Positions 3,276 to 55,046 are shown, counted from the first letter of the stretch. The stretch: DNA of 56,703 nt from a virus (IMGVR_UViG_3300046836_000099:1-56703), one strand, 5' to 3'. The notes: generated from the letters alone by a model not told the origin. Numbers and translations: made by a program.

Positions 3276-3570
3276 ACATTTCTTCTGGAGTGTGCGTGTC
3301 GAGGATTTCTTCACAATCCCCACAGGATAGGTATTGAATGCGGTCTGTGATTGAAGGTTCCCACCATTCCATGTAGTCGTAAACCGCGCCGACCATATTA
3401 CCTTCACTGTCAAGTGAATTGAACCAAGCAGGACAATTGGCTGCTATGTCACCAGTATCGCCAGAAACACGGTATCGACGATTAACTGAATCTTGCAACA
3501 ATTTCTTGGTTAGACAGTCATCACAGTAATGATCCGCGCTGTAAGTAAATGCTATGATTCTAGGTGGCAT
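3253..3570 (-). CDS. Hypothetical protein with two CxxC motifs
   Basis: 105 aa; CDDC and CGDC. Confidence 0.75.
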   Translation of the reverse strand: MPPRIIAFTYSADHYCDDCLTKKLLQDSVNRRYRVSGDTGDIAANCPAWFNSLDSEGNMVGAVYDYMEWWEPSITDRIQYLSCGDCEEILDTHTPEEMYEDASST

Positions 3571-4058
3571 TACGCTGTAACCGCCATCTTCTTAACCATA
3601 CCGAAACCATCCGGTCCTTGCCATACACCTTCACTAGTTTTACGGAATGCTTCTCTAAAGTTCTTGTGTGCATCCGTATTCTCTGGATAAAGTGCATGAA
3701 TCGCACCTTGCTCAGTAAGATGTATTGAAACCAACTGCGGTGCAGGAGCATGGAAATCTGGATAGCTCCTAAATGCAGCATACACACAAGCTTCCTCTAC
3801 CATAGGTGATTTAGGTACTTCACCGTGTTCAGTTCTCTTAGGTTCAAGAAGTGTATCCATCAGTTCTTGAACTTCTGGCGTTATTTCTTCATCGTCGTCA
3901 AGAACTCTAAGTCTAGCAGCCTGAACATCTAGACGATGCTGTAGCTCTTGAATCCGATTAGTTGCTTCAACCATCCAACGGTAGTAAACCGTCTGTGGGA
4001 TGATTCTTGCTTGTTCAGACTCTTGAACTCTATCGAGTAGTTCTGAGATAGGTTCCAT
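3570..4058 (-). CDS. Hypothetical protein (N-terminal coiled coil)
   Basis: 162 aa; AGGAGG RBS; TAATG overlaps. Confidence 0.75.
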   Translation of the reverse strand: MEPISELLDRVQESEQARIIPQTVYYRWMVEATNRIQELQHRLDVQAARLRVLDDDEEITPEVQELMDTLLEPKRTEHGEVPKSPMVEEACVYAAFRSYPDFHAPAPQLVSIHLTEQGAIHALYPENTDAHKNFREAFRKTSEGVWQGPDGFGMVKKMAVTA

Positions 4059-4255
4059 TAGTCTGCCTCCTGCACAGTGATATCGAAATCACCAGCAAGA
4101 TTGCTCCAATGAGCGAAGAGAATGTTGTTCTCATTCTTTGGAGGATCAACAACCGTAAATCCACTAAGCAATGCATTCGTAATTATCTTGATCGAGTCTG
4201 CATCGTCTAGCTGACTAACTTCATCCTTCTTGAACACACGAATTACGAGTGTCAT
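4058..4255 (-). CDS. Hypothetical protein
   Basis: 65 aa; TAATG overlaps. Confidence 0.7.
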   Translation of the reverse strand: MTLVIRVFKKDEVSQLDDADSIKIITNALLSGFTVVDPPKNENNILFAHWSNLAGDFDITVQEAD

Positions 4256-4773
4256 TACTTGTCATCCTTCCTTCTTGACAGAGGATGCTCAGCTTCCCTA
4301 TCTGGCCTACAAACACCAACCGAACCACCACCATCACTAGTGATGTGATAGTGAATCCTTCTGTCTTGAATTACTGCAAGTTGCTGCGCTGCACGATAGC
4401 CGCGCCAGAACGGGCCAAGTACATCTTGATTCTCTTCATACAAAACGTTGTCGTCGTCGTCAGTTAGTTTAACCCGAGTGAAGTGCAACTCACTTGCATT
4501 AAACTCACCATCAGTTAGATTATACAACCTAGCCGGGCTAGAGAGCCAAGGCCCCTTAGCTGTATAAAGTGATCCATCAACCGTGCGGTATCTAAACTCA
4601 GCCCCACCATAACCCCTACTTGTGTGAGAGTGAATATCAGTGTGAACCGAATCGGCTGCATTAGTTGAGTCAGTACGAATGAGATACGTTGTATCTCCAT
4701 CTTCAAGAATGACACGCCAGATACCCTGTACGTTTTCTCTAGGATCTTCTTTTGTTTCATGCATCGTTAACAT
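4255..4773 (-). CDS. Hypothetical protein
   Basis: About 170 aa; GAAAGGGG RBS directly after stem-loop; start may be ATG at 4764. Confidence 0.75.
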   Translation of the reverse strand: MLTMHETKEDPRENVQGIWRVILEDGDTTYLIRTDSTNAADSVHTDIHSHTSRGYGGAEFRYRTVDGSLYTAKGPWLSSPARLYNLTDGEFNASELHFTRVKLTDDDDNVLYEENQDVLGPFWRGYRAAQQLAVIQDRRIHYHITSDGGGSVGVCRPDREAEHPLSRRKDDK

Positions 4774-4784
4774 CCCCTTTCATT

Positions 4785-4957
4785 GATAGGGTTAGTAAGG
4801 CAACAGGTTGTGCAGCATCACCCAATTCATTTAGCTGCTGTTAGGAATAGGGCACAGGGTTTGCCTGTGTAATCCCTCCGTGGACTAACCATAACGCATT
4901 GGGTACGTCAGCCTAGCCAGCCTAACCGATTGTGCCTGTTGCCTTACTAGCCCTATC
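4785..4957. repeat. Conserved intergenic stem-loop 1 (23-bp arms, 127-nt interior)
   Basis: GATAGGGTTAGTAAGGCAACAGG / CCTGTTGCCTTACTAGCCCTATC, 1 mismatch. Confidence 0.9.
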
Positions 4958-4976
4958 TAACGGGCTAGCTGTATCT

Positions 4977-5462
4977 TTAGTCAGTTGCAAGATCGGTGAA
5001 TGCAATCCTATCGCAATCCCATTCAACAATCTCCCGAGTCGTAGCGGGAATCACCTTAGTCCCGACAACCCTTTTAGTGCAAACTGCCTTACGAGTGGAG
5101 TAGAAGTTCAACTCCAAATCATCACTGATTTTCACATAAATGTTGAAGTCGTCGTCAGTGTAATCCTTGCGAACAGCATACTTCTTAGAGCGTGCCCACT
5201 TAACAACCCGAGCAAACTCTTTACGAGTAGCCTCCTCATCGAAAACAGATTCGCTAGTCCGCGCCTCTTCATCTTCGACGATGCTGTAAACAGCGACGTT
5301 ATTGTAATCTCCACCCCTTACAGCGTTGTAAGGAACTTCGATACCATGTGACGCTGCATCCAACCATGCTGCTTGAACCGCAATAATCCGTTCAAGCTCG
5401 TTCTGACATTGTGTCTTAAAGATTTCCACTTTGTCAGACTGTACTGCTGTCAGTGTATCCAT
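4977..5462 (-). CDS. Hypothetical protein
   Basis: 161 aa; strong GAAAGGGGGTGA RBS. Confidence 0.8.
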   Translation of the reverse strand: MDTLTAVQSDKVEIFKTQCQNELERIIAVQAAWLDAASHGIEVPYNAVRGGDYNNVAVYSIVEDEEARTSESVFDEEATRKEFARVVKWARSKKYAVRKDYTDDDFNIYVKISDDLELNFYSTRKAVCTKRVVGTKVIPATTREIVEWDCDRIAFTDLATD

Positions 5463-5484
5463 TTGTTGCTCACCCCCTTTCAGT

Positions 5485-5572
5485 AAGTAGGGTTAATGAA
5501 GGGTAGATATCTTGCATTCACCTTAGCCGCAATCAGGCTACTAAGATAAGCTACCCTTCATTAACACTACTT
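5485..5572. repeat. Conserved intergenic stem-loop 2 (22-bp arms)
   Basis: AAGTAGGGTTAATGAAGGGTAG / CTACCCTTCATTAACACTACTT, 1 mismatch. Confidence 0.9.
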
Positions 5573-5615
5573 GTTTAAGTGCGTTGATAAGGCAGACGCA
5601 CCCCTGCCGTCGTCT

Positions 5616-5948
5616 TTAAACTCTAACGCTGTGCTTTACTTTGCGAGTGAGTAGTTCACTCATGAACTGAGTTGTGATGATCTTTGTAGCTAGATCAGTA
5701 CCTTGAGTCCAGCCGCCATTTACGTCACTGTTGTGAACTTCACCAAGTGCTACATAGAAGATCATTGCAGCATCGGGTGTAATCAATTCCGTCACTTGTG
5801 CTTCTGACTTCAAGTTCTGGAATGAAAAATGCTCTTCAAACGTGATATCGAGATTGTCGTTAAGTTCCTTGTACTTCACGTTACCCAGGAAACTCAACTT
5901 ACCTCTTACCTCGTTAATCATGCGATTAACTTTTTCTGCATCAACCAT
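5616..5948 (-). CDS. Hypothetical protein
   Basis: ATG at 5948 follows a GAAAGGGGGTGA RBS. Confidence 0.8.
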   Translation of the reverse strand: MVDAEKVNRMINEVRGKLSFLGNVKYKELNDNLDITFEEHFSFQNLKSEAQVTELITPDAAMIFYVALGEVHNSDVNGGWTQGTDLATKIITTQFMSELLTRKVKHSVRV

Positions 5949-5975
5949 TCTCTCACCCCCTTTCGCTGTAAACAC

Positions 5976-6003
5976 AGTTTAGCAGATAGCGAGAGTTTGT
6001 CAA
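5976..6003 (-). promoter_or_regulatory. Sigma70/HrdB-type promoter
   Basis: TTGACA-16 nt-TAAACT with extended TG. Confidence 0.7.
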
Positions 6004-6015
6004 CCCCACTTTCGT

Positions 6016-6096
6016 ATAGGGTTAGTGAATGGTAGTTTTATGAGTTAGCTCCCGCTCAAAATTGCGTGCCCCATATCTACCATTCACTAGCTCTAT
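6016..6096. repeat. Conserved intergenic stem-loop 3 (20-bp arms)
   Basis: ATAGGGTTAGTGAATGGTAG / CTACCATTCACTAGCTCTAT, 2 mismatches. Confidence 0.85.
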
Positions 6097-6108
6097 CGTA
6101 GCAGCTAG

Positions 6109-6270
6109 TTACTTGCTGAGTTTTGTTACTGACACGCTACAGAAATCACCGCGTTTTTCTAGTTCTGCAATCATAACCCGGTGGATATCATTTCTGTAGA
6201 CTTCGTGAATCTGAATCACTTTACCATTCAGATCACGTACTACCAATTTGTACAGATCAAGCAATGCCAT
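6109..6270 (-). CDS. Hypothetical protein, 53 aa
   Basis: MALLDLYKLVVRDLNGKVIQ...; GAGG RBS; translated by hand. Confidence 0.6.
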   Translation of the reverse strand: MALLDLYKLVVRDLNGKVIQIHEVYRNDIHRVMIAELEKRGDFCSVSVTKLSK

Positions 6271-6427
6271 CTTTAACCTCTACTTCTTCGATCATCACTT
6301 CGTTGAATTGACACTCAATTCCATCAGAGTCAAGTGCAAGGAAGTTACCATAGATATCTGACTCTTTGGTAACAACGCAACCCTTTTCAAACGGAGTGCT
6401 GAACTTGTCTCCAACCTTCATGTTCAT
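6257..6427 (-). CDS. Hypothetical protein
   Basis: ATG at 6427 after AAAGGAG RBS. Confidence 0.7.
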   Translation of the reverse strand: MNMKVGDKFSTPFEKGCVVTKESDIYGNFLALDSDGIECQFNEVMIEEVEVKDGIA

Positions 6428-6439
6428 GCTAACTCCTTT

Positions 6440-6549
6440 ATTAGAGTTAGTGGAGGGTAACAACTTCGTTGTACTCTCTACAACGCTCCAACGCTAATGC
6501 AATCAATCCGTAGCGAGGTTTGAAAGCGTTACCCTCCATTAACCCTAAT
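6440..6549. repeat. Conserved intergenic stem-loop 4 (22-bp arms)
   Basis: ATTAGAGTTAGTGGAGGGTAAC / GTTACCCTCCATTAACCCTAAT, 2 mismatches. Confidence 0.85.
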
Positions 6550-6616
6550 TTGCTAGTGGCCCCTACCATACTCACTAGCCGTTATAACCTCCGGATTCTC
6601 CATTCCCTCTATCTGA

Positions 6617-6739
6617 TTACTTATTGAATGAAGCAATCATCTTTTCCCGATTGCACGTATGGCAAACGAGAGTCTTAAACTCAGTCCAAGTAGGACGAAG
6701 TTCAGCAACCATGATGTGACCTTTGCTGCAAGTGAACAT
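6617..6739 (-). CDS. Small Cys/His protein, 40 aa
   Basis: MFTCSKGHIM...LVCHTCNRE...; GAAAGGA RBS. Confidence 0.6.
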   Translation of the reverse strand: MFTCSKGHIMVAELRPTWTEFKTLVCHTCNREKMIASFNK

Positions 6740-6752
6740 TTCATCCTTTCTT

Positions 6753-6905
6753 GTTAGAGTTAGTGAACGGTAGCAAGACTGTTAGCCGGGCCTTTAAGGT
6801 TATCGCGGCAGGGAACCACCCTTTTCATGCCTTAAGCGGCGCCGTCCAATCCCGGTTGAAACGTACTAACAGTTGGTTATCTCACTACCGTTCACTAACT
6901 CTAAC
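6753..6905. repeat. Conserved intergenic stem-loop 5 (21-bp perfect arms, nested inner stems)
   Basis: GTTAGAGTTAGTGAACGGTAG / CTACCGTTCACTAACTCTAAC. Confidence 0.9.
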
Positions 6906-6996
6906 TTGTAAGCCAACGAACGAACATCACTAGCCCAACGATAAAGCATACGATTAGTAGAATTCCCTGCATTATTTTACTTCCCCCTGTTGTTGC

Positions 6997-7209
6997 TTAA
7001 AGCTTGTACGCAACTACGGTGCCAGTACCGACCGCATTGTACCTACGACCTTTACCGGCCTTACCTTCAAAACGCCCCACAGAGTGAGCAGGCGGTTTTC
7101 CGTTATGCCAATCGTAACCGTCAAACCACTTAGACCCACTTGCGTTAACCCTTGTCTTATTCGCGCGGAGCAACTCAGAAACCCGCGCCATGCTAAGCGG
7201 TGTATCCAA
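6997..7209 (-). CDS. Small basic hypothetical protein
   Basis: TTG at 7209 after GAAAGGTGGTGA RBS. Confidence 0.7.
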   Translation of the reverse strand: MDTPLSMARVSELLRANKTRVNASGSKWFDGYDWHNGKPPAHSVGRFEGKAGKGRRYNAVGTGTVVAYKL

Positions 7210-7230
7210 TTTTTTATCACCACCTTTCAC

Positions 7231-7360
7231 TAAGTAGAGTTAGTGAAGCACAGAGGCTATCACAGACATTGGTTATCAGCATTCGGTTGGGGTTATTCTT
7301 ACAACCCGACCTAATAGCGTTATCCTGTGTTAGTAGTCTGTGCTTCACTAACCCTACTTA
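7231..7360. repeat. Conserved intergenic stem-loop 6 (24-bp arms)
   Basis: TAAGTAGAGTTAGTGAAGCACAGA / TCTGTGCTTCACTAACCCTACTTA, 1 mismatch; includes the stop codon of the upstream gene. Confidence 0.9.
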
Positions 7361-7588
7361 ACGAACGTCAGCCCATCCGTCGATATACACTTCCGAGATA
7401 TCGTCGGAGATAGGTGCAAGTTCTTTATCTGCCTTAGGACTGTTAAGCCGGTACTCATCGAAGTCCTTTAGAAGATAATTCCGGTAGGCATTGATTGCTG
7501 TGTTCAGACTTGTGAATGTTGCAATCACTTCCCAACCTTTGGAACCGTTCACTTCGATTGTAAACACGTTATCAAAATTCTCTGCCAT
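7358..7588 (-). CDS. Hypothetical protein
   Basis: 76 aa; AAAGGAGGTGA RBS. Confidence 0.75.
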   Translation of the reverse strand: MAENFDNVFTIEVNGSKGWEVIATFTSLNTAINAYRNYLLKDFDEYRLNSPKADKELAPISDDISEVYIDGWADVR

Positions 7589-7604
7589 TTATATTTTCAC
7601 CTCC

Positions 7605-7658
7605 TTTAGAGTTAAGGAAGGATAGACGCCGCAATGTCTATCCAACCTTAACACTAAA
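7605..7658. repeat. Conserved intergenic stem-loop 7 (short loop)
   Basis: TTTAGAGTTAAGGAAGGATAGAC / GTCTATCCAACCTTAACACTAAA, 3 mismatches. Confidence 0.8.
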
Positions 7659-7998
7659 CCTCAGTGTCGTCGTTTTCGTCCTGCTGTGCTGCCTGAGCAG
7701 CGGAGAACACGTCCATGTTGAGAAGGATAACCTTCCAACTAGACTTGTCCTTCGGATCAACGCGATCGAACAGAACAGTAAGCGCAGGCCAATCAGCTTC
7801 CTTGGCATGGGCCTCGATGTTGTTGTTGATCGAGTTACGAGTTGCCTGTGCATCCTTACCCTTGTAGTTCGGAAGCGCAGAGAACTCAATCGTCAGATCA
7901 CCGGAATCAACGAAGTTCTGAATGTCCGGCTTGTACGTACCGCGCTGCTTCGATGTTGCAAGCAACTCTTCGATCTGAGTAAGTGTGAGCGTATCCAT
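7654..7998 (-). CDS. Hypothetical protein, paralog of 54648..55046
   Basis: ATG at 7998 after GAAAGGGGGTGA RBS; shares RGxY, GKDA, NN and L(L/I)N motifs and an acidic tail with the paralog. Confidence 0.85.
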   Translation of the reverse strand: MDTLTLTQIEELLATSKQRGTYKPDIQNFVDSGDLTIEFSALPNYKGKDAQATRNSINNNIEAHAKEADWPALTVLFDRVDPKDKSSWKVILLNMDVFSAAQAAQQDENDDTEV

Positions 7999-8030
7999 TT
8001 GTGTTTCACCCCCTTTCGGTTTGTAGACGG

Positions 8031-8059
8031 AGTGTAGCACAAAGAAGCCTGCCTGTCAA
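8031..8059 (-). promoter_or_regulatory. Sigma70/HrdB-type promoter
   Basis: TTGACA-17 nt-TACACT with extended TG; shares TTTGTGCTACACT with the promoter at 976-1004. Confidence 0.85.
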
Positions 8060-8349
8060 GTCCAAATGACAGACTTCTCACTACTACAGAGTTATCGGTT
8101 TGAATGCAATCCATGTTGGTTGCGGGCACAAGTAAGTTAGGAAGGAATGAGTCTAGCCGACCTCGTTACAGTTCCCTTAGTATATAGGCTATATGATAGA
8201 TAGATTGATAGATAGAAATTCAGTCTATCATTCTACATATCATCCAGTATCTCTAGGGAGAACACTGTACGACACCCATGCTGCATACCATGACGTAGGT
8301 AAGCCAAATTTTTGCTTATTAGGCTATGCCTATTCATTTTCTATGCATC

Positions 8350-8772
8350 CGAGATTGCATCAATAGCGCATCCCTGCCTAAAAGCGATTAGAGTGCCTGA
8401 TGGATAGTGCCCATCTTCGCCATGAGAGCGTAATCGTTGCTCACGATGTTGACGCTACTGCGGCGATTAGGCTTGCGAGTGCGAGTGCCGACGGTGCGGA
8501 ACACTTTTGCATCGACCTTGTTCCCAGCATCGTCGAGCTTGTAGCTGATGCAGTTCGACGTTCCGGTGAATGGCTTGTGATCGAAGGTACGTTTGTCTGC
8601 CTTCGACGGTAGCCACCGTGCCGACACTCTTGTGTCAAGAGCCGTTACTGCACTCATTGCGCGAGCATCAGACCGGACGACGATTGCGTGATTGTTCTGC
8701 ATTGTGTCTCTCCTAAGTGAGTAGTTGTGCATGGACTCATTTTAGCAGAGATACGCTACTGATGCAATCTCG
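8350..8772. repeat. About 33-bp imperfect inverted repeat (8350-8383 / 8740-8772) flanking one gene
   Basis: CGAGATTGCATCAATAGCGCATCCCTGCCTAAAA vs TTTTAGCAGAGATACGCTACTGATGCAATCTCG. Confidence 0.85.
8388..8702 (-). CDS. Basic hypothetical protein (first gene of the leftward early unit)
   Basis: ATG at 8702 after AGGAGA RBS. Confidence 0.7.
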   Translation of the reverse strand: MQNNHAIVVRSDARAMSAVTALDTRVSARWLPSKADKRTFDHKPFTGTSNCISYKLDDAGNKVDAKVFRTVGTRTRKPNRRSSVNIVSNDYALMAKMGTIHQAL

Positions 8773-9281
8773 TTACTAATCCATCATGGAGACACACAAG
8801 GCGAGTGTCGAGGGTCAGCGTTCATAGAGTGGCTATTAGTTGCCGAAGCGATCACACGAGAGTGTGTCTCTATGATGGATTAGCAGCCGCGGGTTATCAG
8901 GCTTACGCATAACGCTGCTGAAATGGCCCGTATTTATAGTCGTTGCAGCTCGCTTGTGAGCGACCACTGTGCAGACTAGGTTAGGTGGCGCCCGCCTACG
9001 CCACGAATACGCGGGAGTGTTAACGAATTTAGAGTGTTTTTCGTCCTTGCCGCTTGCGCGGCCCTGCCCTACACAGACACTATAGGCCCGGCGCCAGGCG
9101 CAATGTTTTACCGTCCCCCACACGTAACTTTCGTAATTAAAGCTTTTTGTATAGTTAATGGTACTTATACCAAGGAGTCTAGTGAACTGCTATTGTGCCA
9201 GTGGGGGTAACGTAGATTTGATTTGCCTCAGTCTCGTTACCCCCATAACTTTATTTAAACAACAAAGGGTGGTAAATAGAA

Positions 9282-9641: not shown

Positions 9642-9998
9642 ATGGCCGCCGACGAACAGAACCGCGATAAGGCGCTTAGAACATTACAAGCTGAAATCCT
9701 AAAGGAACAGCTTAAGTCTAAGGGTCTTGAAGAAGATAAGAAAGCTCTGATGCAAGAGTACGTTCTTGCTGACGATGTTGAAGCGCCTGAAAAGGTTAAG
9801 AAGAACATACGCGCTAGAATGCCTGCTGCGTTAGAGGCGATAGATGAAATACTTGCTACAGGTAATGATGGTGTACGTGCATCGCTGGCGAAGTGGATTG
9901 TTGATAGGGGTCTTGCGCCTGATTCGTTAGGTGGAGAAACTGGTGCTGATAGAGAGCTTAGTAAGTTGTTAGTAGAACTAAAAGCAAACGATGACTAA
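9642..9998 (+). CDS. Helical protein, candidate terminase small subunit
   Basis: AALEAIDEIL...VRASLAKWIVDRG resembles helical repeats of small terminase-like proteins; position near start of late operon. Confidence 0.45.
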   Translation: MAADEQNRDKALRTLQAEILKEQLKSKGLEEDKKALMQEYVLADDVEAPEKVKKNIRARMPAALEAIDEILATGNDGVRASLAKWIVDRGLAPDSLGGETGADRELSKLLVELKANDD

Positions 9999-11574: not shown

Positions 11575-12053
11575 TGGCTGACGTTAAAACAGCATATGGT
11601 ACTGGCGGCGTAGCAATTACGTGTACTTTAGCCAGTCTTGCTATCAGTTCTTACCGAGAATCGACGGCTGTAGACAATACTACTAACCTTTGGCTAGATG
11701 CTCTGGTTTCTATGGGTGTTAAGCTACAAGCTGGTACTCCTGCGAACGATAAGGCTGTCTACGTTTACTGTGCTGGTTCAATCGACGGCACAACTTGGGG
11801 CGATGCTGTAACTGGTTCTGATGCAGCAATTACACCTAACGCTCCTATTAACTTAAAATTGCTTGGAGCTATTTGGGCACCTACATCTGCTGGTACATTT
11901 GAGGCTGGTCCTTGGTCTGTTGCTAGTGTGTTTGGCGGAGTAATGCCAAAGAAATGGTCCATCGTTGTATGGAACCGTACTGGTATAGCTCTCGATTCAA
12001 CTGAGGGCAACCACTACAAGCTCTATACCGGAGTTTATTCTACGGTTCTGTAG
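11574..12053 (+). CDS. Putative virion structural protein (beta-sandwich)
   Basis: 159 aa; YVYCAGSIDGTTW, PKKWSIVVWNRTG motifs; late-operon context. Confidence 0.7.
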   Translation: MADVKTAYGTGGVAITCTLASLAISSYRESTAVDNTTNLWLDALVSMGVKLQAGTPANDKAVYVYCAGSIDGTTWGDAVTGSDAAITPNAPINLKLLGAIWAPTSAGTFEAGPWSVASVFGGVMPKKWSIVVWNRTGIALDSTEGNHYKLYTGVYSTVL

Positions 12054-12056
12054 ACC

Positions 12057-13115
12057 ATGCCAGTTGCGCTAAAACACGTAGCTGGTAGGTTCGATGGTAA
12101 TACACCTATTGTAAATAGGGCGCATCCACTTGGCCGAAATCTTGACTTCGCTGTAGCTCAACAGTTACAGGGTGGTCATATGATGGACCTTGCTAATGGT
12201 ATTAGTAGCTTCCCAGGTTCACAAGGTTATTCTGAATCTGGTACGGCTTCTCCATTTCCATCGGAACATGGTAGTAACTGGGCCGGCGGTGTTAGAGGTA
12301 AAAATGGTCCAGTTGTATTTCCTGATGCATGGCCTTATCATCAGCCACCTAATCAGTTTCCATTTGCACTTGGATTTTTGTGGCAGATATATGGTGGAAC
12401 ACTTGGCTCTCAAGATGTGTATAATTGTGGTAAGTCACAATTAAGCGGAAACCAGAGTGGTATACGTGTTACCCTTCAAGGGAGTTCAAATAGATTTGCT
12501 TTTGCTATAGGTGATGGTACTGGTACTGCTACGACTGACGTTAAACAGTGGCAGGTACCTTATACATTCATTAACGGTGTTACATCAGGTACTAGCGATC
12601 AAGGTAGTTTTCTTTGGGTATTTAGAAGCTTAACAGATGTGTCGGCTTACTTGAATGGTATAGATGTTTCTAGTACATTCACTTTTACTGGAACTGGTAC
12701 TGTTTGGGGTGAAGTCGGTAATCCTGTTGAACCTGCTATTGGTTGTGTAGCTCAGGTCGGTGGTTCACCTGGGCAGATTTGGGGTGCAAACGTTTGTCCT
12801 CTAGTTTGTAAATGGAGTGACAATTTAAGCGACCAGGACGCGATGAACTTTCATGCGAATCCGTTTGAAATGTTCTCTACCCGTCCTCGCATAATTAAGC
12901 TTCCGCCACCGCCTCAGAACTATACTGATTCTGCCACACTTGCAGTTAAGTCTGTTCCTGGTGGTATCGAAGGATTATCACCACAAGACGGTTATCCTAT
13001 CTCCGATGTTTCTGCTGGTTCGTGGACGGCTTCTGGTGGAGGCACGTTATGGGATAAGATAGATGAAGAGCCTATCAGCGATACAGACTACATACAGTCT
13101 GACGCTGCACACTAA
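12057..13115 (+). CDS. LamG/concanavalin-like lectin-domain virion protein
   Basis: NRAHPLGRNL start, SAYLNG, W..LS.......NPFEMF end of a LamG-like domain. Confidence 0.65.
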   Translation: MPVALKHVAGRFDGNTPIVNRAHPLGRNLDFAVAQQLQGGHMMDLANGISSFPGSQGYSESGTASPFPSEHGSNWAGGVRGKNGPVVFPDAWPYHQPPNQFPFALGFLWQIYGGTLGSQDVYNCGKSQLSGNQSGIRVTLQGSSNRFAFAIGDGTGTATTDVKQWQVPYTFINGVTSGTSDQGSFLWVFRSLTDVSAYLNGIDVSSTFTFTGTGTVWGEVGNPVEPAIGCVAQVGGSPGQIWGANVCPLVCKWSDNLSDQDAMNFHANPFEMFSTRPRIIKLPPPPQNYTDSATLAVKSVPGGIEGLSPQDGYPISDVSAGSWTASGGGTLWDKIDEEPISDTDYIQSDAAH

Positions 13116-13120
13116 TATAA

Positions 13121-16100
13121 ATGCCACTTACTCCAACATTTAGAGCAGCCGGTACTTGGTCGTTTACGGCTAACAGTGTAGCGACCCCATTTACTTGTAC
13201 GCCTGGCGCTCCTGCTGGTAAAGCTGTTGGGGATTTACTCGTTCTTGTTTGTGAGTCTCGCAGTATTACTGCTACTGTTGCGACGCCTACAGGTTGGACG
13301 CTAGTAACAGGATTCCCGAAAAGATCGGGTACTGCATCTGGCGGTACGTTCTATGTGTTTGTTAGAATTGCTGATGGTACTGCGACAGATACACCTTCGC
13401 CTGTATGGACTGGTTTAACTACTGGTACTTCTGGTGATGCTTCTGGTGCTGGTATTCTTGCATTTACTAACGCTACAATAACGCTAGACGGTACTGTATC
13501 TTCTAGCGACCTTTCAGCACAAACTACAACGTCTGTCATTCCTGCCTTTACATCAGCCAACTATGGCGCTCTCGTTTTAGGTATGGCAATGAAGCTGAAT
13601 GAATCTTCTGGTCAAACTTCTACTGTTGCTACATTTACTGAGGATTCTGACAACAACACAACGAGTGGTACTGGTCACGTTCTTGAAACTTCCCATTTAT
13701 TTACAACGAATCCGGGAAGCTCTGGTACTGCAACTGTTACGTGGTCTATCACAACTTCTGCTCGCGCACTAGCGGTTAGCCTAGCTCTACAAGCTACATC
13801 TACAACTACAACCGATGCTGCAACTATTGGTAGTGTATCTGCTGTTAGTGCAGTTGAAGTACATGAGATTCCTGATAGTGCTACTGTTGCAAGTGTAACT
13901 GCCGTTAGTGCTACGGAAACGTATACCGCTGCTACAGCTACGACTATCTATCGTACTGCGTTAACATCGACTTTAAACACTCCGCTACAAAACACACCAT
14001 CCACTCTACTGGTCAGAGCACGCAAAGTCAATGCTACTGATTCAGGTACATTAGATGTAAGGATTTATGAAGCGGGAACACTACGAGAAGGTCCTTACAG
14101 TATTAGACTGGTAGACCAATTTGCACTTGATTTGCACTCGTTCAGTGTAAGTCCATTCACTACGTTCAATGATGTAGAAGTAACGTTTCAAGGTGTCGCT
14201 GATCCTGGCGGTGCGTTGACAGTTCAGGTTAGCTCAGTCAAGCTAGAAATACCGAAAGCTTCTGCAACTACATTCAACTACACCGACTCTGCGACGATTC
14301 CCGTCGTTACGAGCCTCTCTGCCACGGACGTTGCAGCAGATGTAGAATCAGCAACTATATCAAGTAAGACAACTCCATCTGCGCTAGATGTTGCAGCAGA
14401 TGTTGAAGCGGCTACTATCAGTTCCGTTACCTCACTCACGTTCGTTGAGGTAACTCCACCAGATTCCGCTACTATCAGTAGCGTTACAACTCCGTCTGCT
14501 ACAGACGTTGCAGCTTACGTAGAAGCCTCTACTATTAGCGGTGTAACTACGCCTAGCGCAACTGACATAGCAGCAGACCTAGAAGCGGCTACAATATCGA
14601 GTGTTACTTCAATTACGTTTGTTGAGGTAACACCGCCTGACGCAGCTACAGTTTCCAGCGTAACAAGTCTGACGGCTGTAGAACTGCATGAGATATCTGA
14701 TGCAGCTACTATCGCAAGTGTAACAAGTTTAACCTACACGGAAACTGCTCAGTATGTAGAATCCGCTACCCTTAGTAGTAAGACTACTCCGTCAAGTACG
14801 GACGTAGCTGCATACGTAGATCAGCAAACAGTAGCCGGCGTTACTAGCTTATCTGCGCTAGACGTAGCTGCATACTTAGACGCTGCTACAGTGGCAGGAG
14901 TTACTACACCTTCTGCGACGGATATAGCTGCTTTCGTTGAAGCTGCAACTGTTGCAGGTGTTACGTCAGTATCGGCTCTTGAAGAGCATGATATCTTTGA
15001 CGCGGCTACTATTGCAAGTGTAACAAGTCTTTCCGCGATAGAGACAGCACAGTATGTAGAGAGTGCTACGCTTAGCAGCGTAACTAGCTTGACCTACACA
15101 GAGGTAGTTGCTGATATCGAGGCAGCTACCATCGCAGGAGTAACAACTCCGTCTAGTGCTGACATTGCGGCCTATGTAGAGTCTGCAACTATTACAAGCG
15201 TCACGACGCCTAGCGGTGTAGATATCCCATCGCATGTATATCTAGACTCCGCTACTATTTCTAGCGTGACTAGCTTGACTAGTGTAGATGTTGCTGCTTA
15301 CGTTGAAACATCTACAGTGAGTGGTGTTACCACTCCATCTAGTACAGACATTATGGCTGTTTCTGAGGCAGCTACAGTCGCCGGCGTAACTACACCTAGT
15401 GGCGTAGATATTGCACAGTATTCAGACGAGGCTTATCGAGTAGCTATCAGCGATACGTTTACTAGGTCAATTGGATTAGGCTCAGGATGGGGTTCACCGG
15501 ATCAAGGCCCGGCTTATACGTATCCTAACGGTGGATCAACTAAATTCGGCGTCAATGGTACTCAAGGCCAAATGGCGATTGATGTTGCCAACAGCGTTAG
15601 AATGGTATTTGTTGATACCGGGGCTATTGATGAAGAAGTTACTTTCGAGTTTACGATGCCTACGCAGGATACTGCTCAAACTCAGCAGTTCTACGTCATA
15701 GCGCGAGGAACTGACCTAAATAACTTCTACGCACTCAGACTTGCTCAAACTATTACTAACGGTGGTGCATTAGCATTAGCCAAGCGTGTAGCTAGTGTTC
15801 AGAGTGACTCTCTCGTTGTGTTTAACATATCAAGTGGTACGCTTGTCCCTGGTAGTCAATACTGGCTTAAGCTGGCTGTCATCGGTTCTAGGTTATTTGG
15901 TAAGTATTGGCTTGATGGTTCTACTGAACCTGGGTGGTTAGTACAGATAACTGATACTGACTTGACTACGGGGACTAATGCAGGCTTCCGTGGTTTCGTT
16001 CCTACCGGCTCTACCGTACTGCCTACAATACTACTCGACAATCTCACTGTAAAACAGGCCACAACTGCTGATTTCATCACTAGTATCACTACTGTTTCTG

Positions 16101-17149
16101 CTCTAGAAGAACACGATATACCTGATAGTGCAACTATCTCGTCAAAGACAACTCCTTCTGCTACTGAAACAGCCCAATATGTTGAGTCGAGCACTATCGC
16201 AAGTGTTACATCTGTATCGGCGCTGGAAGAACATGATATATTCGATTCTGCGACGATATCTAGCGTTACAACGGTATCTGGTACTGATGTTTATACCCCT
16301 GCCGTTAGTAACACCGATGCTGCTACAATAGCGTCTAAAACGTCAATTACTACTGTTGATACAGCTCAGTACATCGAAAGCTCTATTGTAGCCGGTATTA
16401 CGACTCCATCGGCTACTGACGTAGCTGCAACGCTTGAAGCTGCGACGATTACGGGTAAGACGACTCCGAGCGCAACTGACGTTGCTGCATACGTCGAGTC
16501 TGCTACATTAAGCAGTAAAACTACTCTTTCATCCACAGATGTTTCCACAGGTGTTGATAGTTCTACTGGCGCTATAGTTACTACTCCTAGTAGCACAGAC
16601 TTTGCAGCCTATGTAGAGAGCAGCACAATTAACGGTGTAACCACTCCAAGCGGCGTAGATATCTTCCCCACCATCAATCTAGATGCTGGTACTTGCACAA
16701 CAAAGACGACGATCACACCTGTGGAGATTTATGCAGGAATAGACGCCGCAAATCTTAGTACGATTACGTCTATAACATACAGTGACTTCACAGCCGGCGC
16801 AGATAGCAATACTGTGTCGAGTGCGTCTAGTGCATTCTCGACTGATACTGCTAGTTACGCTGAATCTGTAACGTTCACAAGCATTACGTATGTATCGGCT
16901 ATTGAACAGTACGTACCGGCTCCTACATTCCAAGATGCTGCCACTGTTACGAGCAAAACGTACATTGGCGCTACTACAGAGTATGGCCCTATCACGGTAG
17001 ATCGCTTTGTAGGGTTCTTAACGAGTAGATGGATTAGTGGTGGTATGGTTGCTAGATTCAATTCGACGACAACGAGCAAACGTTGGATTAGTACAGAGTT
17101 TGTCATTAACCGACTAGTCGGGATGGTGAGGTCGAAGTGGACAACTTAA
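13121..17149 (+). CDS. Large Thr/Ser/Ala-rich fibre protein with about 35 20-aa repeats and embedded beta-sandwich domains
   Basis: 1342 aa; repeat consensus (D/E)(S/A)ATISSVTTPSATDVAAYV. Confidence 0.85.
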   Translation: MPLTPTFRAAGTWSFTANSVATPFTCTPGAPAGKAVGDLLVLVCESRSITATVATPTGWTLVTGFPKRSGTASGGTFYVFVRIADGTATDTPSPVWTGLTTGTSGDASGAGILAFTNATITLDGTVSSSDLSAQTTTSVIPAFTSANYGALVLGMAMKLNESSGQTSTVATFTEDSDNNTTSGTGHVLETSHLFTTNPGSSGTATVTWSITTSARALAVSLALQATSTTTTDAATIGSVSAVSAVEVHEIPDSATVASVTAVSATETYTAATATTIYRTALTSTLNTPLQNTPSTLLVRARKVNATDSGTLDVRIYEAGTLREGPYSIRLVDQFALDLHSFSVSPFTTFNDVEVTFQGVADPGGALTVQVSSVKLEIPKASATTFNYTDSATIPVVTSLSATDVAADVESATISSKTTPSALDVAADVEAATISSVTSLTFVEVTPPDSATISSVTTPSATDVAAYVEASTISGVTTPSATDIAADLEAATISSVTSITFVEVTPPDAATVSSVTSLTAVELHEISDAATIASVTSLTYTETAQYVESATLSSKTTPSSTDVAAYVDQQTVAGVTSLSALDVAAYLDAATVAGVTTPSATDIAAFVEAATVAGVTSVSALEEHDIFDAATIASVTSLSAIETAQYVESATLSSVTSLTYTEVVADIEAATIAGVTTPSSADIAAYVESATITSVTTPSGVDIPSHVYLDSATISSVTSLTSVDVAAYVETSTVSGVTTPSSTDIMAVSEAATVAGVTTPSGVDIAQYSDEAYRVAISDTFTRSIGLGSGWGSPDQGPAYTYPNGGSTKFGVNGTQGQMAIDVANSVRMVFVDTGAIDEEVTFEFTMPTQDTAQTQQFYVIARGTDLNNFYALRLAQTITNGGALALAKRVASVQSDSLVVFNISSGTLVPGSQYWLKLAVIGSRLFGKYWLDGSTEPGWLVQITDTDLTTGTNAGFRGFVPTGSTVLPTILLDNLTVKQATTADFITSITTVSALEEHDIPDSATISSKTTPSATETAQYVESSTIASVTSVSALEEHDIFDSATISSVTTVSGTDVYTPAVSNTDAATIASKTSITTVDTAQYIESSIVAGITTPSATDVAATLEAATITGKTTPSATDVAAYVESATLSSKTTLSSTDVSTGVDSSTGAIVTTPSSTDFAAYVESSTINGVTTPSGVDIFPTINLDAGTCTTKTTITPVEIYAGIDAANLSTITSITYSDFTAGADSNTVSSASSAFSTDTASYAESVTFTSITYVSAIEQYVPAPTFQDAATVTSKTYIGATTEYGPITVDRFVGFLTSRWISGGMVARFNSTTTSKRWISTEFVINRLVGMVRSKWTT
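14285..16980 (+). repeat. Degenerate 60-nt/20-aa coding tandem repeats, interrupted at about 15425-16065 by a lectin-like domain
   Basis: Visible directly in the translation. Confidence 0.85.
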
Positions 17150-20575: not shown

Positions 20576-22151
20576 ACACGAAATCTCATATCTCACAGAG
20601 TTAAAGCAGTTCGCTGAAAACGGCGAACTGCGTTGGCTTGCGAATAATGAGATGTGGGTTCAGCAGTATCCATTCGATAGCTGGACTCACCCTGTCTTTA
20701 GTGATACGGTTATTGACCATGATCGTGCTACTAAGTTAAAGGACAGCTTCGATCACGGCGTTAGAGGTACTAAAATCTTCGCTGATTACGAGCATGGTCT
20801 TGATGCTGCTAAGGGTTCAAAAGCAGCAGGGTCTATCAAGGAATTAAAAGTTGTAGATGAACCTCGCGGTGTATTCACGCAGCCCGGACTGTGGGCGCGT
20901 GTGCAGTTTAGTGATACCGCGAGACACGAAATTGATAGTGGTGAGTGGAACTATTGGTCAACAACTCACTTTGATGAATGGAAGCATCCTCAGACTGGTG
21001 AAGTACACGAAATGGTCTATGACGGTGGTGGGCTTACTAATAAGCCTTACGTCAAAGGCATGGTGCCACTTAACTTCTCTGAGCTTGGTATTCCAAAAGA
21101 ATTCGCTGTGTGGTCTACAGCGATGCAGAACGATTTACCTGATAGTTCGTTCTGTTATATCGAACCTGGCGGAACAAAAGATAGTAGCGGTAAGACCACG
21201 CCTCGTTCATTACGGCATCTTCCTTACAAGGATGCCAGTGGTAAAGTCGATCTAGCGCATGTTCGTGATGCACTAGCTAGACTCGATCAGGTTCAGAATA
21301 TGCCTGCATCTGCTAAGGCATCTTGTAAGTCTAGATTAGAGAGGTTGCTTGGCGCGAAGTCTTACGACGAGCAGCTTGCAATCTTAGATGAGGAGTTAGT
21401 AGTGGATGACGATAATGTAGTTGATCCGCCGGTCGATGCTGTTGATGATAATGGCAACATTATTGTTGTAGACCCTCCGGCAGTTGTTGATAAGGTCGAT
21501 GATGATAAGGGTGGTGAAAAAGACGTGGAGTTAGAGAAGGAATTACGTGCGAAGTTAGGTCTTGCTGATGACGTTGATATCGTCAAGGCTGTCACCGACC
21601 TTAACGACGAAGTTACTCCTATGCGTGAAGTTCTCAAAGCTCATAGTGAGCGTAAGGCATTCTCTGAGGCATTCCCCGACGAGTTTGCACGCATGGTTCG
21701 TTTAGAGAAGTCAGAGCAGGATCGTTCTGCTAAGGCATTTTCTGAGCAGTACACTAACGTTCGTCTTACCGAGAAAAAGGGTGATGACAACGAGGCTACA
21801 ACGCTTGGCTTTAGCGGCTTAGTCATTCAGAACCTTGAAGGACTTGCTAAGGAGTTCAGCGAAGGTACTGCTACACTTGATTCGGTCAAGACTGTTATTG
21901 ATTCTATCACGAATAGCGGTGTCGTTGATTACGGTACTAGAGGTTCTAGTCGTGAAGATGATAGTCTTATGAAGGACGAGGATGCAATTCCGTCTGGTGG
22001 AGTTCGTGAGACTCGTAAGCTCTTTGCAGAGAAGGTTGCAGAGGTTATGAAGGCTGATGAACTTGATTACCAGACCGCACTTAGAATGGCTGCTGATAAG
22101 TATCCTGTGTTAGCAGAAGCATACCACTCTGCTGGTATGGAGAGGTCGTAA
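20565..22151 (+). CDS. Capsid maturation protease/scaffold (Mu gpI-like)
   Basis: DYEH, AAG.IKEL, GLWARVQF, GGGLTNKP motifs; acidic coiled-coil C-terminal scaffold. Confidence 0.85.
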   Translation: MDFEHEISYLTELKQFAENGELRWLANNEMWVQQYPFDSWTHPVFSDTVIDHDRATKLKDSFDHGVRGTKIFADYEHGLDAAKGSKAAGSIKELKVVDEPRGVFTQPGLWARVQFSDTARHEIDSGEWNYWSTTHFDEWKHPQTGEVHEMVYDGGGLTNKPYVKGMVPLNFSELGIPKEFAVWSTAMQNDLPDSSFCYIEPGGTKDSSGKTTPRSLRHLPYKDASGKVDLAHVRDALARLDQVQNMPASAKASCKSRLERLLGAKSYDEQLAILDEELVVDDDNVVDPPVDAVDDNGNIIVVDPPAVVDKVDDDKGGEKDVELEKELRAKLGLADDVDIVKAVTDLNDEVTPMREVLKAHSERKAFSEAFPDEFARMVRLEKSEQDRSAKAFSEQYTNVRLTEKKGDDNEATTLGFSGLVIQNLEGLAKEFSEGTATLDSVKTVIDSITNSGVVDYGTRGSSREDDSLMKDEDAIPSGGVRETRKLFAEKVAEVMKADELDYQTALRMAADKYPVLAEAYHSAGMERS

Positions 22152-47073: not shown

Positions 47074-47146
47074 TGGGCCTCCTTGGAATCGAACCAAGAA
47101 CCATCGTGTTATGAGCACGCCGCTCTAACCATTGAGCTAGAGGCCC
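47074..47146 (-). tRNA. tRNA with CAT anticodon, probably Ile2 (lysidine, reads AUA)
   Basis: GGGCCTCTAGCTCAATGGTTAGAGC...CTCATAA...GGTTCGATTCC; paired G1-C72, so not fMet; overall resemblance to ileX-type tRNAs; no encoded CCA. Confidence 0.88.
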
Positions 47147-52911: not shown

Positions 52912-53475
52912 TTAGTACCTCGCTCCACAGACAGGCCAGTTACTTAAACTCAAGTGACTAGCAATTGCGATCTGTTGCATTTCAGTTGCGTGGTCTGCTC
53001 TATCTGCATAACGTCCACCACCAGAGTTAATCCAAGTAGTGTACGTAAACTGCAAACCACCGTAGAAATTATTACCTGTGTTATCTTGCCAATTATTACC
53101 AGACTCACAACTAGCTACCTGCTCCCAACAAGAAATACATGCACCACCCAACATAGATCGCTGCTGCAACTCCGACTGCAAATGCAACGATTGCTGTAAT
53201 TCTCGCAGGGTCCATCTTAGTTGTGCTCTGTGCCATTTGACTACCTTTACATCGTGAAACTTACTGGTACGAATTACCCATTGATCGTGACGGATAATCC
53301 TATGCTGCCACTTAATCACCACAGGAAGGACAAAATGCTTATGAGGCATCATAATCCTAGTGTGATGTACTTGCTTGTGACTAGCGGGGTCTAATTTACC
53401 TTGCGCTGTTTGTCCTAGAGATAGTGCTAGTAAACAACTAGCCACTATGGTAGTTAGTGTCAGCTTGGAGTAAAT
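52912..53475 (-). CDS. rpf: Secreted resuscitation-promoting factor (Rpf)-family transglycosylase
   Basis: WEQVASCESGNNWQDNTGNNFYGGLQF...W...GG...ADHATEMQQIAIA...WPVCG; signal peptide; probable ATT start at 53475 (GTG at 53445 is the alternative). Confidence 0.92.
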   Translation of the reverse strand: MYSKLTLTTIVASCLLALSLGQTAQGKLDPASHKQVHHTRIMMPHKHFVLPVVIKWQHRIIRHDQWVIRTSKFHDVKVVKWHRAQLRWTLRELQQSLHLQSELQQRSMLGGACISCWEQVASCESGNNWQDNTGNNFYGGLQFTYTTWINSGGGRYADRADHATEMQQIAIASHLSLSNWPVCGARY

Positions 53476-53525
53476 TGCGCCTGCTCCTTGTTAGATTACA
53501 TTTCCTCTACTTTACTAGTAGGTAT

Positions 53526-53926
53526 GTTGCCGGTAAGTGTTTACCACATGGGGAGAGATGGGAGCAGTAAACTCCTTACCGGCAACTTTATGAACTACGG
53601 TAGTCTAGTCCCTGGGGAAAAACTTTAAGTCCCTGTAACTAGATACGTGTCATTCGATATTCGTGACGTATCGAAAGCCCAACACGTTCGCCTTACACGC
53701 GCTATAGTTCTACCGTAGTTCAATGAGTTAGTAGGTTCAGGCTGAGGTAATCGGCCGATACCCCCACTTGTGTCGTTGCATTGCGAATGGCGACACCTTC
53801 CTACTAACTCATTCAACTACGAATATGAACTACCCCTGCGAATGTAGTCATCCTATTGAGTTACAATTAACAGGGGTAGTTCAGTAGTGCAGTTAGGCCG
53901 TCGGCCATGACACCTAACTGCACTAC
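53526..53926. ncRNA. Candidate structured RNA: tandem stem-loops
   Basis: Five stems: 53526-53586, 53591-53722, 53714-53821, 53826-53883, 53884-53926; no credible ORF; downstream of promoter 54169-54197. Confidence 0.55.
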
Positions 53927-53939
53927 CCAACTACGCCTG

Positions 53940-54056
53940 CTATTTGCGGTTCTTCTTCCTAGACGCTTTAGCTTTCTTACTTGCAGCCTGCCGCTTTTTG
54001 TATCTAAGTGAGAACGAACGGCTGTTGTGGCCGTCTATACCGCCATGTTTACGCAT
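53940..54056 (-). CDS. Very basic 38-aa peptide
   Basis: MRKHGGIDGHNSRSFSLRYKKRQAASKKAKASRKKNRK; no obvious SD. Confidence 0.5.
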   Translation of the reverse strand: MRKHGGIDGHNSRSFSLRYKKRQAASKKAKASRKKNRK

Positions 54057-54075
54057 TAGGTAATAGAACGAAAAG

Positions 54076-54136
54076 AGGCCAGTAAGTGCGGAGAACGGAA
54101 CGACGACAGTTCTGCTCTAAACACACTTACTGGCCT
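54076..54136. other. Stem-loop (13-bp arms) in 5' leader
   Basis: AGGCCAGTAAGTG / CACTTACTGGCCT. Confidence 0.7.
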
Positions 54137-54168
54137 TATTGATGGGCGCGCGCAGCACATCACGGTTA

Positions 54169-54197
54169 AGCCTAGCACAGATCAGGGAAAATGTCAA
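54169..54197 (-). promoter_or_regulatory. Sigma70/HrdB-type promoter
   Basis: TTGACA-17 nt-TAGGCT with extended TG. Confidence 0.8.
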
Positions 54198-54321
54198 CCC
54201 CCTCGGCAAATATATTTAGCGCGCTAATCTCTTTAAGCGAACAAGAGGGCGATAACGATATAAGCCGCTACTAGGATTGTGGTGCAAACCAAGATAGCAT
54301 TCCAAAGAGCTTTCATCGTGG

Positions 54322-54504: not shown

Positions 54505-54581
54505 CCTCATAATGATAATGTAGACCTAGGATTTCGAGTCAGCGAGGAAACGCCTTCCCTATCTACATTATCATTATGAGG
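54505..54581. other. Stem-loop with 20-bp perfect arms
   Basis: CCTCATAATGATAATGTAGA / TCTACATTATCATTATGAGG. Confidence 0.8.
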
Positions 54582-54647: not shown

Positions 54648-55046
54648 CTACGCCTCGCTGGTATCAGTCTCAGTCTCGTCAACCGATTCAGCGTCAACAC
54701 CCTCAACAAGCGAAGTGTTGATAAGGAACACGCGCTCGTCCGGTGTGTCCTTAGTACCGATGTTCTTCTTAATCACCTTAATCGTCGGACCCCACTCACG
54801 AACCAACGAACCTTCCTTCGTCTGCTTCTTTTTCGCGTTATTGAGGCCGGTGTAGACATTAGTAGCATCCTTACCACTAAGCTGACCACCCAAGTCAACC
54901 TCAATACCAACTTCCTGCGAATTGTAGAAGTCGTCCAGAACCACGTCATAGTCGCCGCGAGTACGAGTCTCACTAAGCATCTTAGTGATCTCACTCATAT
55001 CCAGTGTGCGACCTGCATTACGTCCAGTAGTCTCGGTGGAACTCAT
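54648..55046 (-). CDS. Hypothetical protein, paralog of 7654..7998
   Basis: AAGGAG RBS; shared motifs. Confidence 0.85.
   Translation of the reverse strand: MSSTETTGRNAGRTLDMSEITKMLSETRTRGDYDVVLDDFYNSQEVGIEVDLGGQLSGKDATNVYTGLNNAKKKQTKEGSLVREWGPTIKVIKKNIGTKDTPDERVFLINTSLVEGVDAESVDETETDTSEA

Follow-up and report, generated by a model that had tools for sequence, protein, structure and literature searches.

A conserved family of long, covarying hairpins at the early-gene starts of an uncultured phage, with a possible role in early mRNA processing

Seven long inverted repeats, here named E1 to E7, punctuate the leftward early genes of an uncultured phage, IMGVR_UViG_3300046836_000099, whose IMG/VR record taken as a whole (56,703 bp) is the stretch of DNA analyzed in this study and is called the window below. 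They belong to a single family. The base of the stem is conserved in sequence from copy to copy, the upper stem covaries, most copies stand directly ahead of a strong Shine-Dalgarno (SD) sequence, and the family recurs in related phages. Judging from these features, the elements may be cis-acting mRNA hairpins, that is, putative RNase III-type intercistronic processing sites beside strong ribosome-binding sites, a reading that we favor tentatively and regard as possible rather than probable.

Architecture and covariation of the elements

All seven inverted repeats listed in a preliminary description of the window were found where they had been placed. Six of them were returned by an inverted-repeat search, as pairs of arms of 20–37 nucleotides (nt) that are 78–96% complementary and have 41–127 nt between them. 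The seventh, E7, was missed by this search owing to a 2 × 2 internal mismatch and was recovered by folding, by a weight matrix, by a covariance model, and by a strict core-pair scan. Inverted repeats whose arms measure 18 nt or more occur 16 times in the genome, as compared with 1.9 times on average and at most 4 times in 30 shuffles. The 13-nt motif TAGRGTTARKRRA, allowing at most one mismatch, has 14 matches in the window versus 1.92 expected (the largest number in 100 shuffles was 6), and 12 of these 14 matches fall within element arms. The strict core pattern TAGNGYTAR...YTARCNCTA, with both halves within 300 nt, occurs exactly seven times genome-wide and all seven occurrences are the reported elements. 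Each element folds into a long stem, with energies ranging from −25 to −79 kcal/mol.

The elements are described here on the minus strand, in the direction of transcription. E7 (7605–7658) is an interrupted 21-bp stem with an 8-nt loop; the TAG of its 5′ arm is the stop codon of the preceding gene (7654–7998), and the SD sequence AAGGAGGTGA adjoins its 3′ arm, with an ATG 18 nt further on. E6 (7231–7360) has arms of 24–29 nt with 82 nt between them and is followed by an SD sequence and a TTG start 25 nt on; its extended stem holds the TAA stop codon of gene 7358–7588, so that two elements do contain the stop codon of the previous gene, as first described. E5 (6753–6905; arms of 21–33 nt, 101 nt between) and E4 (6440–6549; 22-nt arms, 66 nt between) are each followed by an SD sequence, with an ATG 15 and 14 nt on, respectively. 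E3 (6016–6096; 20-nt arms, 41 nt between) is followed by a sigma-70-like promoter and not directly by an SD sequence. E2 (5485–5572) has 24-nt arms, extendable to 37 nt, that enclose 40–44 nt, and its SD sequence precedes the ATG of a 161-amino acid (aa) gene, 25 nt on. The last element of the array, E1 (4785–4957), has 23-nt arms that are 96% complementary, with 127 nt between them, and is followed by an SD sequence and an ATG either 13 or 22 nt on.

Covariation was computed on the anchored arms, as the loop lengths are too different for the elements to be aligned with MAFFT, and was based on the 18 elements with a common register among the 25 family members collected from the window and from the relatives presented below. 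At the inner-stem positions 16–22, complementarity was 0.92 within an element versus 0.35 between elements (n = 18), and the inner 7-mers took 15 different forms among the 18 elements. Over the outer 13 positions, the corresponding values were 0.90 and 0.73 (n = 18). The outer positions are therefore complementary even between elements, which means that the base sequence itself is conserved there, whereas at the inner seven positions pairing alone is conserved. The covariation is thus real, and the inner stems do differ among copies and yet pair within each, as had been claimed. One fixed stem position is non-Watson–Crick in 11 of the 18 elements, and a C·A pair is found two positions further in in 5 of the 18; given that these positions recur, the helix has a recurring imperfection 4–6 bp from its base. 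Stems are 20–29 bp long, with a median scored stem of 23 bp over the 25 elements, while the loops of the family span 8–213 nt and the total element length 54–255 bp.

Register with gene starts and conservation in related phages

All seven elements lie between minus-strand open reading frames (ORFs) of one leftward unit, downstream of a sigma-70-like promoter (TTGACA-17-TACACT, 8031–8059, minus strand; consensus match only) that is located upstream of gene 7654–7998. The nine co-directional ORFs that the elements separate (7654–7998, 7358–7588, 6997–7209, 6617–6739, 6257–6427, 6109–6270, 5616–5948, 4977–5462, and 4255–4773) span positions 4255–7998, and no Pfam or PHROG family was matched by any of them. 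The claimed adjacency to ribosome-binding sites was confirmed for six of the seven elements, which are followed by a strong SD sequence, with the start codon 13–25 nt after the stem. The seventh, E3, is indeed upstream of a promoter (TTGACA-16-TAAACT, 5976–6003, minus strand, between E3 and gene 5616–5948; also a consensus match only), with the SD sequence coming only after it. The distance from the stop codon of the preceding gene to the element varies from 0 to 91 nt. As the distance to the start is narrow and that to the stop is variable, the elements are placed relative to the downstream start and not to the upstream gene end. The elements stop downstream of 4785, where neighboring genes abut or overlap.

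The same arrangement prevails in the clade: 17 of the 25 elements are followed by a strong SD sequence (at most about 10 nt away) and a start codon 12–30 nt away, 3 by a TTGACA-N16/17-TAnnnT promoter, and 4 by another element, leaving 1 that is followed by none of these. A consensus promoter scan gave no promoter inside any of the seven window elements. No T-run was present after the stem at any of the seven, and purine-rich SD sequences were found there instead. In a terminator scan of the sense strand between 3500 and 9500, the sole terminator-like site was 8074–8051, which lies outside the elements. None of the seven scores as a terminator, and the elements therefore do not behave like ordinary intrinsic terminators, the behavior that had been named as contrary to the proposal.

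Searches with the polymerase and the portal protein led to four near-complete contigs of 56–60 kb (G001 to G004), with protein identities of 50–74%, and to a fragment without the early region (G005). A sixth relative, L114, was found through a conserved early gene. Using an inverted-repeat scan and a weight matrix, we found the element family within the early region of every relative that includes it (5/5), namely G001–G004 and L114, and the conservation in related genomes on which the preliminary description had made its proposal depend was thereby established. G004 carries seven elements plus a minimal one, G001 four, G002 two plus a divergent one, G003 three or four with a shifted consensus, and L114 one. 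A covariance model was built from six elements, three of the window phage and three of G004. At E ≤ 0.004, it recovered eight elements that were not used in training (E4, E5, E6, one of G004, two of G002, and two of G001); it missed E1, which the strict core-pair scan does find, and the other members with long loops. Elsewhere in 463,775 bases, the model gave marginal matches only, in L059 (E 0.011) and L108 (E 0.57), and the former appears unrelated to the family on inspection.

The genes between the elements are far from being so well kept. A homolog in any relative was found for three of the nine ORFs of 4255–7998, and blastn of the first 9.5 kb against the relatives gave three short DNA matches only, two of which are within 4255–7998. 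The 161-aa gene (4977–5462) has orthologs in G001, G002, and G004 at 30–36% identity, and a family element stands ahead of this gene in all four genomes. E2 and its counterpart in G001 have their basal 16 nt almost wholly in common, and their upper stems differ with compensation. In G004, the element before the ortholog is a minimal 10-bp hairpin made of the conserved base alone (3277–3299), which is then followed by a promoter. G004 has the first early gene next to the 161-aa gene; in the window phage, six genes and five elements lie between them.

Contigs of four other DNA runs, which represent near-identical strains, differ from the window in the loop stretch 6497–6511, in genes, and in the stem-to-start spacers 4761–4782 and 7209–7229. 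Within the arms, the sole listed difference is at the outer edge of E6, where three letters are omitted (7231). Outside the clade, a two-arm pattern scan of IMG/VR returned 20 matches, none of which was family-like, with a gap range (30–60) that fits at most two of the window's elements. A wider pattern gave at least 115 matches, and an extended stem was present in one among the matches listed; this one was rejected as a chance look-alike, being a perfect palindrome at the end of a 57% G+C contig without protein similarity to the clade. A search with the first early protein yielded a single weak locus, in metagenome contigs, and none among viral contigs.

Two further observations concern the surroundings of the elements. 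The 53-nt intergenic stretch between E4 and gene 6617–6739 (6559–6611) is 83% identical to G002 9757–9807, being one of the three DNA matches mentioned above. A small hairpin lies in it, as does an SD-like GGAGG ahead of a 42-codon ORF (6447–6575) that crosses E4. In G004 (L096), the elements 3872–3949, 4297–4436, and 5931–6025 are followed by a strong SD sequence with no ATG, GTG, or TTG at a workable distance. The three ORFs concerned have an in-frame ATA or ATT 5–11 nt past the SD sequence, so the start codons may be unusual or the sequence may contain errors.

Possible roles of the hairpins

The firmest argument for a role at the level of expression is that the polarity of the elements and their register relative to the SD sequence are fixed. 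In the reading favored here, most early genes would have one hairpin ahead of them, formed in the polycistronic mRNA of the leftward early unit. Each hairpin would consist of a near-perfect helix of 20–29 bp in which about 13 basal bp are conserved in sequence, usually with one non-Watson–Crick pair 4–6 bp from the base, the upper stem being maintained by pairing only and the loop being variable. The end of the helix would lie 0–10 nt ahead of a strong SD sequence. The host RNase III, a double-strand-specific endoribonuclease, would then cleave the long duplex; this enzyme cuts duplexes of the 20–29 bp kind. Cleavage would produce gene-sized mRNAs with 5′ ends a short way ahead of a strong ribosome-binding site, and the mRNA on the upstream side would be left with a helix at its end, so that each early gene could have its stability and translation set independently of its fast-changing neighbors. 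We infer that RNA, and not DNA, forms the helix, that RNase III would be the enzyme, and that stability and translation would be affected. It should be noted that no RNase III gene turned up among the 60 phage ORFs scanned.

The preliminary description had proposed such processing sites together with the release of small cargo RNAs or, as its second reading, binding or recombination sites that delimit exchangeable gene cassettes. A structured, conserved family at the gene starts of a co-directional early operon fits processing; functional cargo RNAs were not supported. The interiors are mutually dissimilar, even ahead of orthologous genes, and no pair among 21 interiors was found with blastn-short at E ≤ 0.01. 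By eye, the two longest interiors (those of G004 and G003) have a few short stretches in common. The mean z-score of interior structure was −1.4, with 5 of the 21 below −2, and an Rfam scan of the window plus 80 kb of relatives gave tRNAs only at gathering score; the best sub-threshold match (E 0.78) was dismissed as a chance microRNA match. Because they are dissimilar, mildly structured, and without an Rfam match, the interiors are probably terminal loops that are free to vary, and functional small RNAs are unlikely.

The composition of the stems bears on the strand that folds. When pairs are counted on the sense strand, G·U pairs outnumber A·C pairs by 20 to 8 (binomial p = 0.036), where composition predicts about 1:1; three elements dropped out of this count and two were cut short by the stop rule. 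This excess weakly supports folding of the sense strand.

Several points weigh against processing by RNase III. The G·U excess is small and could reflect strand-biased mutation. Sense-strand folding is more stable than antisense-strand folding for 20 of the 25 elements (Wilcoxon p = 0.0008), but 73% of 200 length-matched control windows from the same operons show this bias too (mean −4.4 kcal/mol), and the folding-energy test is uninformative because the controls are equally biased. RNase III requires duplex length more than sequence, and for this reason a basal 13 bp that is near-constant across phages with 30–70% identical proteins is unexplained by this enzyme alone. The minimal 10-bp hairpin of G004 is too short for a classical RNase III substrate. 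Taken together, the constant basal sequence and the minimal version favor a sequence-specific factor. The elements that precede another element (4/25) or a promoter (three or four) look like insulators or attenuators. DNA nearly identical to that of the phage was found in 24 DNA runs from soil or rhizosphere and in no RNA run.

Known RNase III sites offer the closest comparison for the processing reading. The early RNase III sites of T7 (R0.3–R1.3) are themselves a sequence-related family. Like the T7 and SP82 sites, which are sequence-related hairpins located just upstream of ribosome-binding sites, one per early-gene junction, the elements lie between the cistrons of a co-directional early unit and have a stem that spans at least about two helical turns. 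Unlike them, the elements, which are putative sites predicted from sequence, have longer and nearly perfect stems (20–29 bp) with large and hypervariable loops (8–213 nt), their stem base is conserved across phages with only 30–70% protein identity, and they have no Rfam match. In citing papers, the early mRNA of SP82 is reported to carry sites for the RNase III of Bacillus subtilis (Panganiban and Whiteley 1983, cited in PMC4838370), and the half-life of SP82 mRNA to be shortened by a ribosome-binding-site mutation (Hue et al. 1995, cited in PMC7509114).

Inverted repeats associated with translation starts are also found in actinobacteriophages. Extended start-associated sequences (ESAS) from Cluster K and EF phages and the 17–18 bp repeats of Clusters O and EG are situated at the starts of non-structural genes, and their function is described as not known (PMC3203893, PMC7302621). 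They resemble our elements in being imperfect inverted repeats in short intergenic gaps directly ahead of translation starts, kept with the gene family across genomes and conserved though the surrounding DNA has diverged. They differ in size, as the ESAS have arms of 15–17 bp and spacers of 4–14 bp, whereas the elements have covarying arms of 20–29 bp and spacers of 8–213 nt. Moreover, the ESAS are now read as containing a SigA-like promoter (PMC11373665), whereas the consensus scan revealed no −35/−10 promoter inside the seven elements; the sequences are also unrelated.

An alternative reading, unlikely in our estimation, is that the elements are operator hairpins. A sequence-specific protein of the phage or the host would bind the conserved helix base beside the SD sequence and switch the tagged early genes together, at the level of translation or stability, for example for shut-off. 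This would account for a base of 13 bp that is conserved in sequence (0.73 between elements) below an upper stem conserved only in pairing, for the minimal G004 hairpin made of that base alone, for the adjoining SD sequence, and for the fixed non-Watson–Crick position (11/18) with the C·A pair two positions further in (5/18). A stem of 20–29 bp far exceeds the needs of a protein operator, however, and for a binding protein there is a lead only: a family of small early proteins is present clade-wide, with two paralogs per genome and weak matches of the predicted structure to nucleic-acid-binding folds. The window paralogs (7654–7998 and 54648–55046, minus strand) are small, acidic-tailed, and 27% identical to each other. 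An AlphaFold model of this conserved early protein, with a predicted local distance difference test score (pLDDT) of 75, gave sub-threshold matches to a winged helix (Stn1; Z 7.5) and to R3H (Z 5.9; Foldseek E 0.15), all below the level that separates real matches from common arrangements.

It is also unlikely, in our view, that the elements act as attenuators or insulators like the promoter early stem-loop (PeSL) elements of T4-type phages, damping read-through while their common sequence lets related phages recombine and shuffle early cassettes. PeSLs are repeated stem-loops upstream of the SD sequence and start, ahead of ORFans in hypervariable early regions, and their common sequence could mediate modular shuffling (PMC2839356, PMC4122927). 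The setting of our elements is similar in that they occur in a hypervariable region ahead of ORFans, as PeSLs do (PMC2839356), and the stems are kept while just three of the nine early genes have a homolog in a relative. Three of the 25 elements and the minimal G004 hairpin are directly upstream of a TTGACA-N16/17-TAnnnT promoter, which is the PeSL arrangement, and the first early gene and the 161-aa gene, adjacent in G004, are separated here by six genes and five elements. On the other hand, a PeSL combines a strong sigma-70 promoter with a stem-loop, and a promoter follows only one of the seven window elements (3/25 in the clade). A T-run follows none, and seven efficient serial terminators would silence the operon. 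No sign of shuffling or of mini-circles was seen in the contigs of the four DNA runs. These contigs of near-identical strains show no deletion or insertion joints and no gain or loss of cassettes, their low-depth breaks being left uninterpreted, and the relatives, whose DNA is 67–70% identical and matches the early region in three short stretches, are too diverged for breakpoints to be placed there. Nor is the fixed distance to the SD sequence explained by recombination.

A composite of these readings is more doubtful still. The stem base would serve as an address tag and each hypervariable early gene as a stem–SD–ORF cassette whose expression a clade-specific factor would process or time, and the tags of 13–20 bp would double as swap joints for co-infecting relatives. 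Were this true, the family would be a phage counterpart of attC sites or of the T4 PeSLs, based on an RNA or DNA hairpin and lacking promoter and integrase, and the hypervariable early genes might serve host takeover or anti-defense.

It appears very unlikely that the elements are attC-like sites, that is, folded hairpins that would be substrates of a site-specific recombinase in an integron-like array of early cassettes. attC sites are imperfect inverted repeats with conserved outer ends, a middle conserved in structure only, a very variable loop, and conserved helix imperfections, and their ends carry the core GTTRRRY / RYYYAAC. The elements have a comparable architecture, including one site per gene in a co-directional array of promoterless genes, but the core site fits incompletely, as GTTAGTG or GTTAATG in the arms agree with five of the seven positions of GTTRRRY. 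No integrase or recombinase was found among 60 ORFs with Pfam or 31 with PHROGs, small ORFs not all being covered, and no excision or insertion joints were present in the four DNA runs. The elements are, in addition, tied to the downstream start codon and not to the end of the upstream gene, where an attC site would mark the 3′ end of its cassette.

Mobile elements of the miniature inverted-repeat transposable element (MITE) type, such as the Correia elements of Neisseria, inserted between the early genes are the least credible explanation: although the terminal inverted repeats of 20–29 bp beginning TA...TA and the total length of 54–255 bp would suit them, the interiors are unrelated (no blastn-short match at E ≤ 0.01 among 21), all copies are confined to one early operon with constant polarity and register to the SD sequence, orthologous genes retain orthologous elements across diverged phages, no transposase was found among the 60 ORFs scanned with Pfam, and the narrow IMG/VR pattern scans gave no convincing copies outside the clade among the matches listed. 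A terminal TA target-site duplication would be indistinguishable from the conserved TAG...CTA, and the flanks beyond pair for 1–3 bp and contain no direct repeat.

Processing sites remain our preferred reading. Overall, the family appears to share position and logic with RNase III sites, ESAS, and PeSLs and, as far as sequence can tell, to have the full set of defining features of none of them. Our search of the literature, made in open-access text with supplementary figures excluded, found no description of a family of such hairpins. The start-associated inverted repeats of actinobacteriophages (ESAS and those of Clusters O and EG) have been on record since 2011 with no function assigned, and the PeSLs and the T7 and SP82 RNase III sites illustrate that motifs of this kind can organize the expression and evolution of early genes. 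The present family is an unusually clean case, with long covarying stems, a sequence-conserved base, a minimal version, and survival despite an almost complete turnover of the genes that it flanks. Should the stems serve in processing or as operators, they would reveal how phages maintain the correct expression of fast-changing early genes and could supply portable insulator parts; if they are also recombination joints, they would explain the exchange of early-gene cassettes. As the phage is uncultured, tests are confined to surrogate hosts or in vitro systems.

The phage genome and its other stem-loops

The window has a G+C content of 45% and an estimated completeness of 96%, and the phage looks like a siphovirus. 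Genes for the terminase, portal, major head protein, and tape measure are on the plus strand, and those for DNA polymerase I, a primase, an SNF2 helicase, and a Sak4-like protein are on the minus strand. No annotated relative exists, since megablast of 4300–8200 against cultured phages gave no match and, for the portal protein, the highest identity to any cultured phage is 31%, the top matches being Gordonia phages. The phage encodes a protein of the Rhodococcus equi Vap family (PF05526, E 2.9e-35; 44569–45003) and an Rpf-like transglycosylase domain protein (PF06737, E 1.1e-22; 52912–53445), both on the minus strand and identified with Pfam. Together with the Gordonia-phage portal matches, these hint at an Actinomycetota host; the 45% G+C, the TTGACA/TAnnnT promoters, and the SD sequences of 9–11 nt would suit a Bacillota host equally well.

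Two tRNA genes (44475–44558 and 47074–47146, minus strand) are present in the replication module, and tRNA genes are found inside or adjoining the early regions of G001 and G003. Directly upstream of the terminase gene lies an ORF of 1342 aa (13121–17149, plus strand) that belongs to no Pfam or PHROG family and is 26–35% identical among relatives whose capsid proteins are 54–82% identical. Its product was considered as a hairpin-specific polymerase and dropped, as it has no family and no Atlas lead and as the promoters at the head of the operon are of the host type.

Another family of long stem-loops, which has the conserved base TCYCATA.../...TATGRGA, is located just downstream of the paralog gene 54648–55046 in every relative. 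Its members are at 54505–54581 in the window (also 53714–53934 and 54072–54140), 21813–21954 in G001, 12042–12095 in G004, 58372–58412 in G002, 8969–9127 in G003, and 8044–8105 in L114. In the window, several more stems of 18–22 bp crowd a stretch of about 970 nt (53350–54321) in which a simple gene call gave no ORF. The point where leftward and rightward genes diverge is marked by a different long inverted repeat, with arms of 23–27 nt enclosing 64–217 nt (window 8772–8887, G004 1532–1794, G001 11798–12033), and in the relatives a small ORF may lie inside it.

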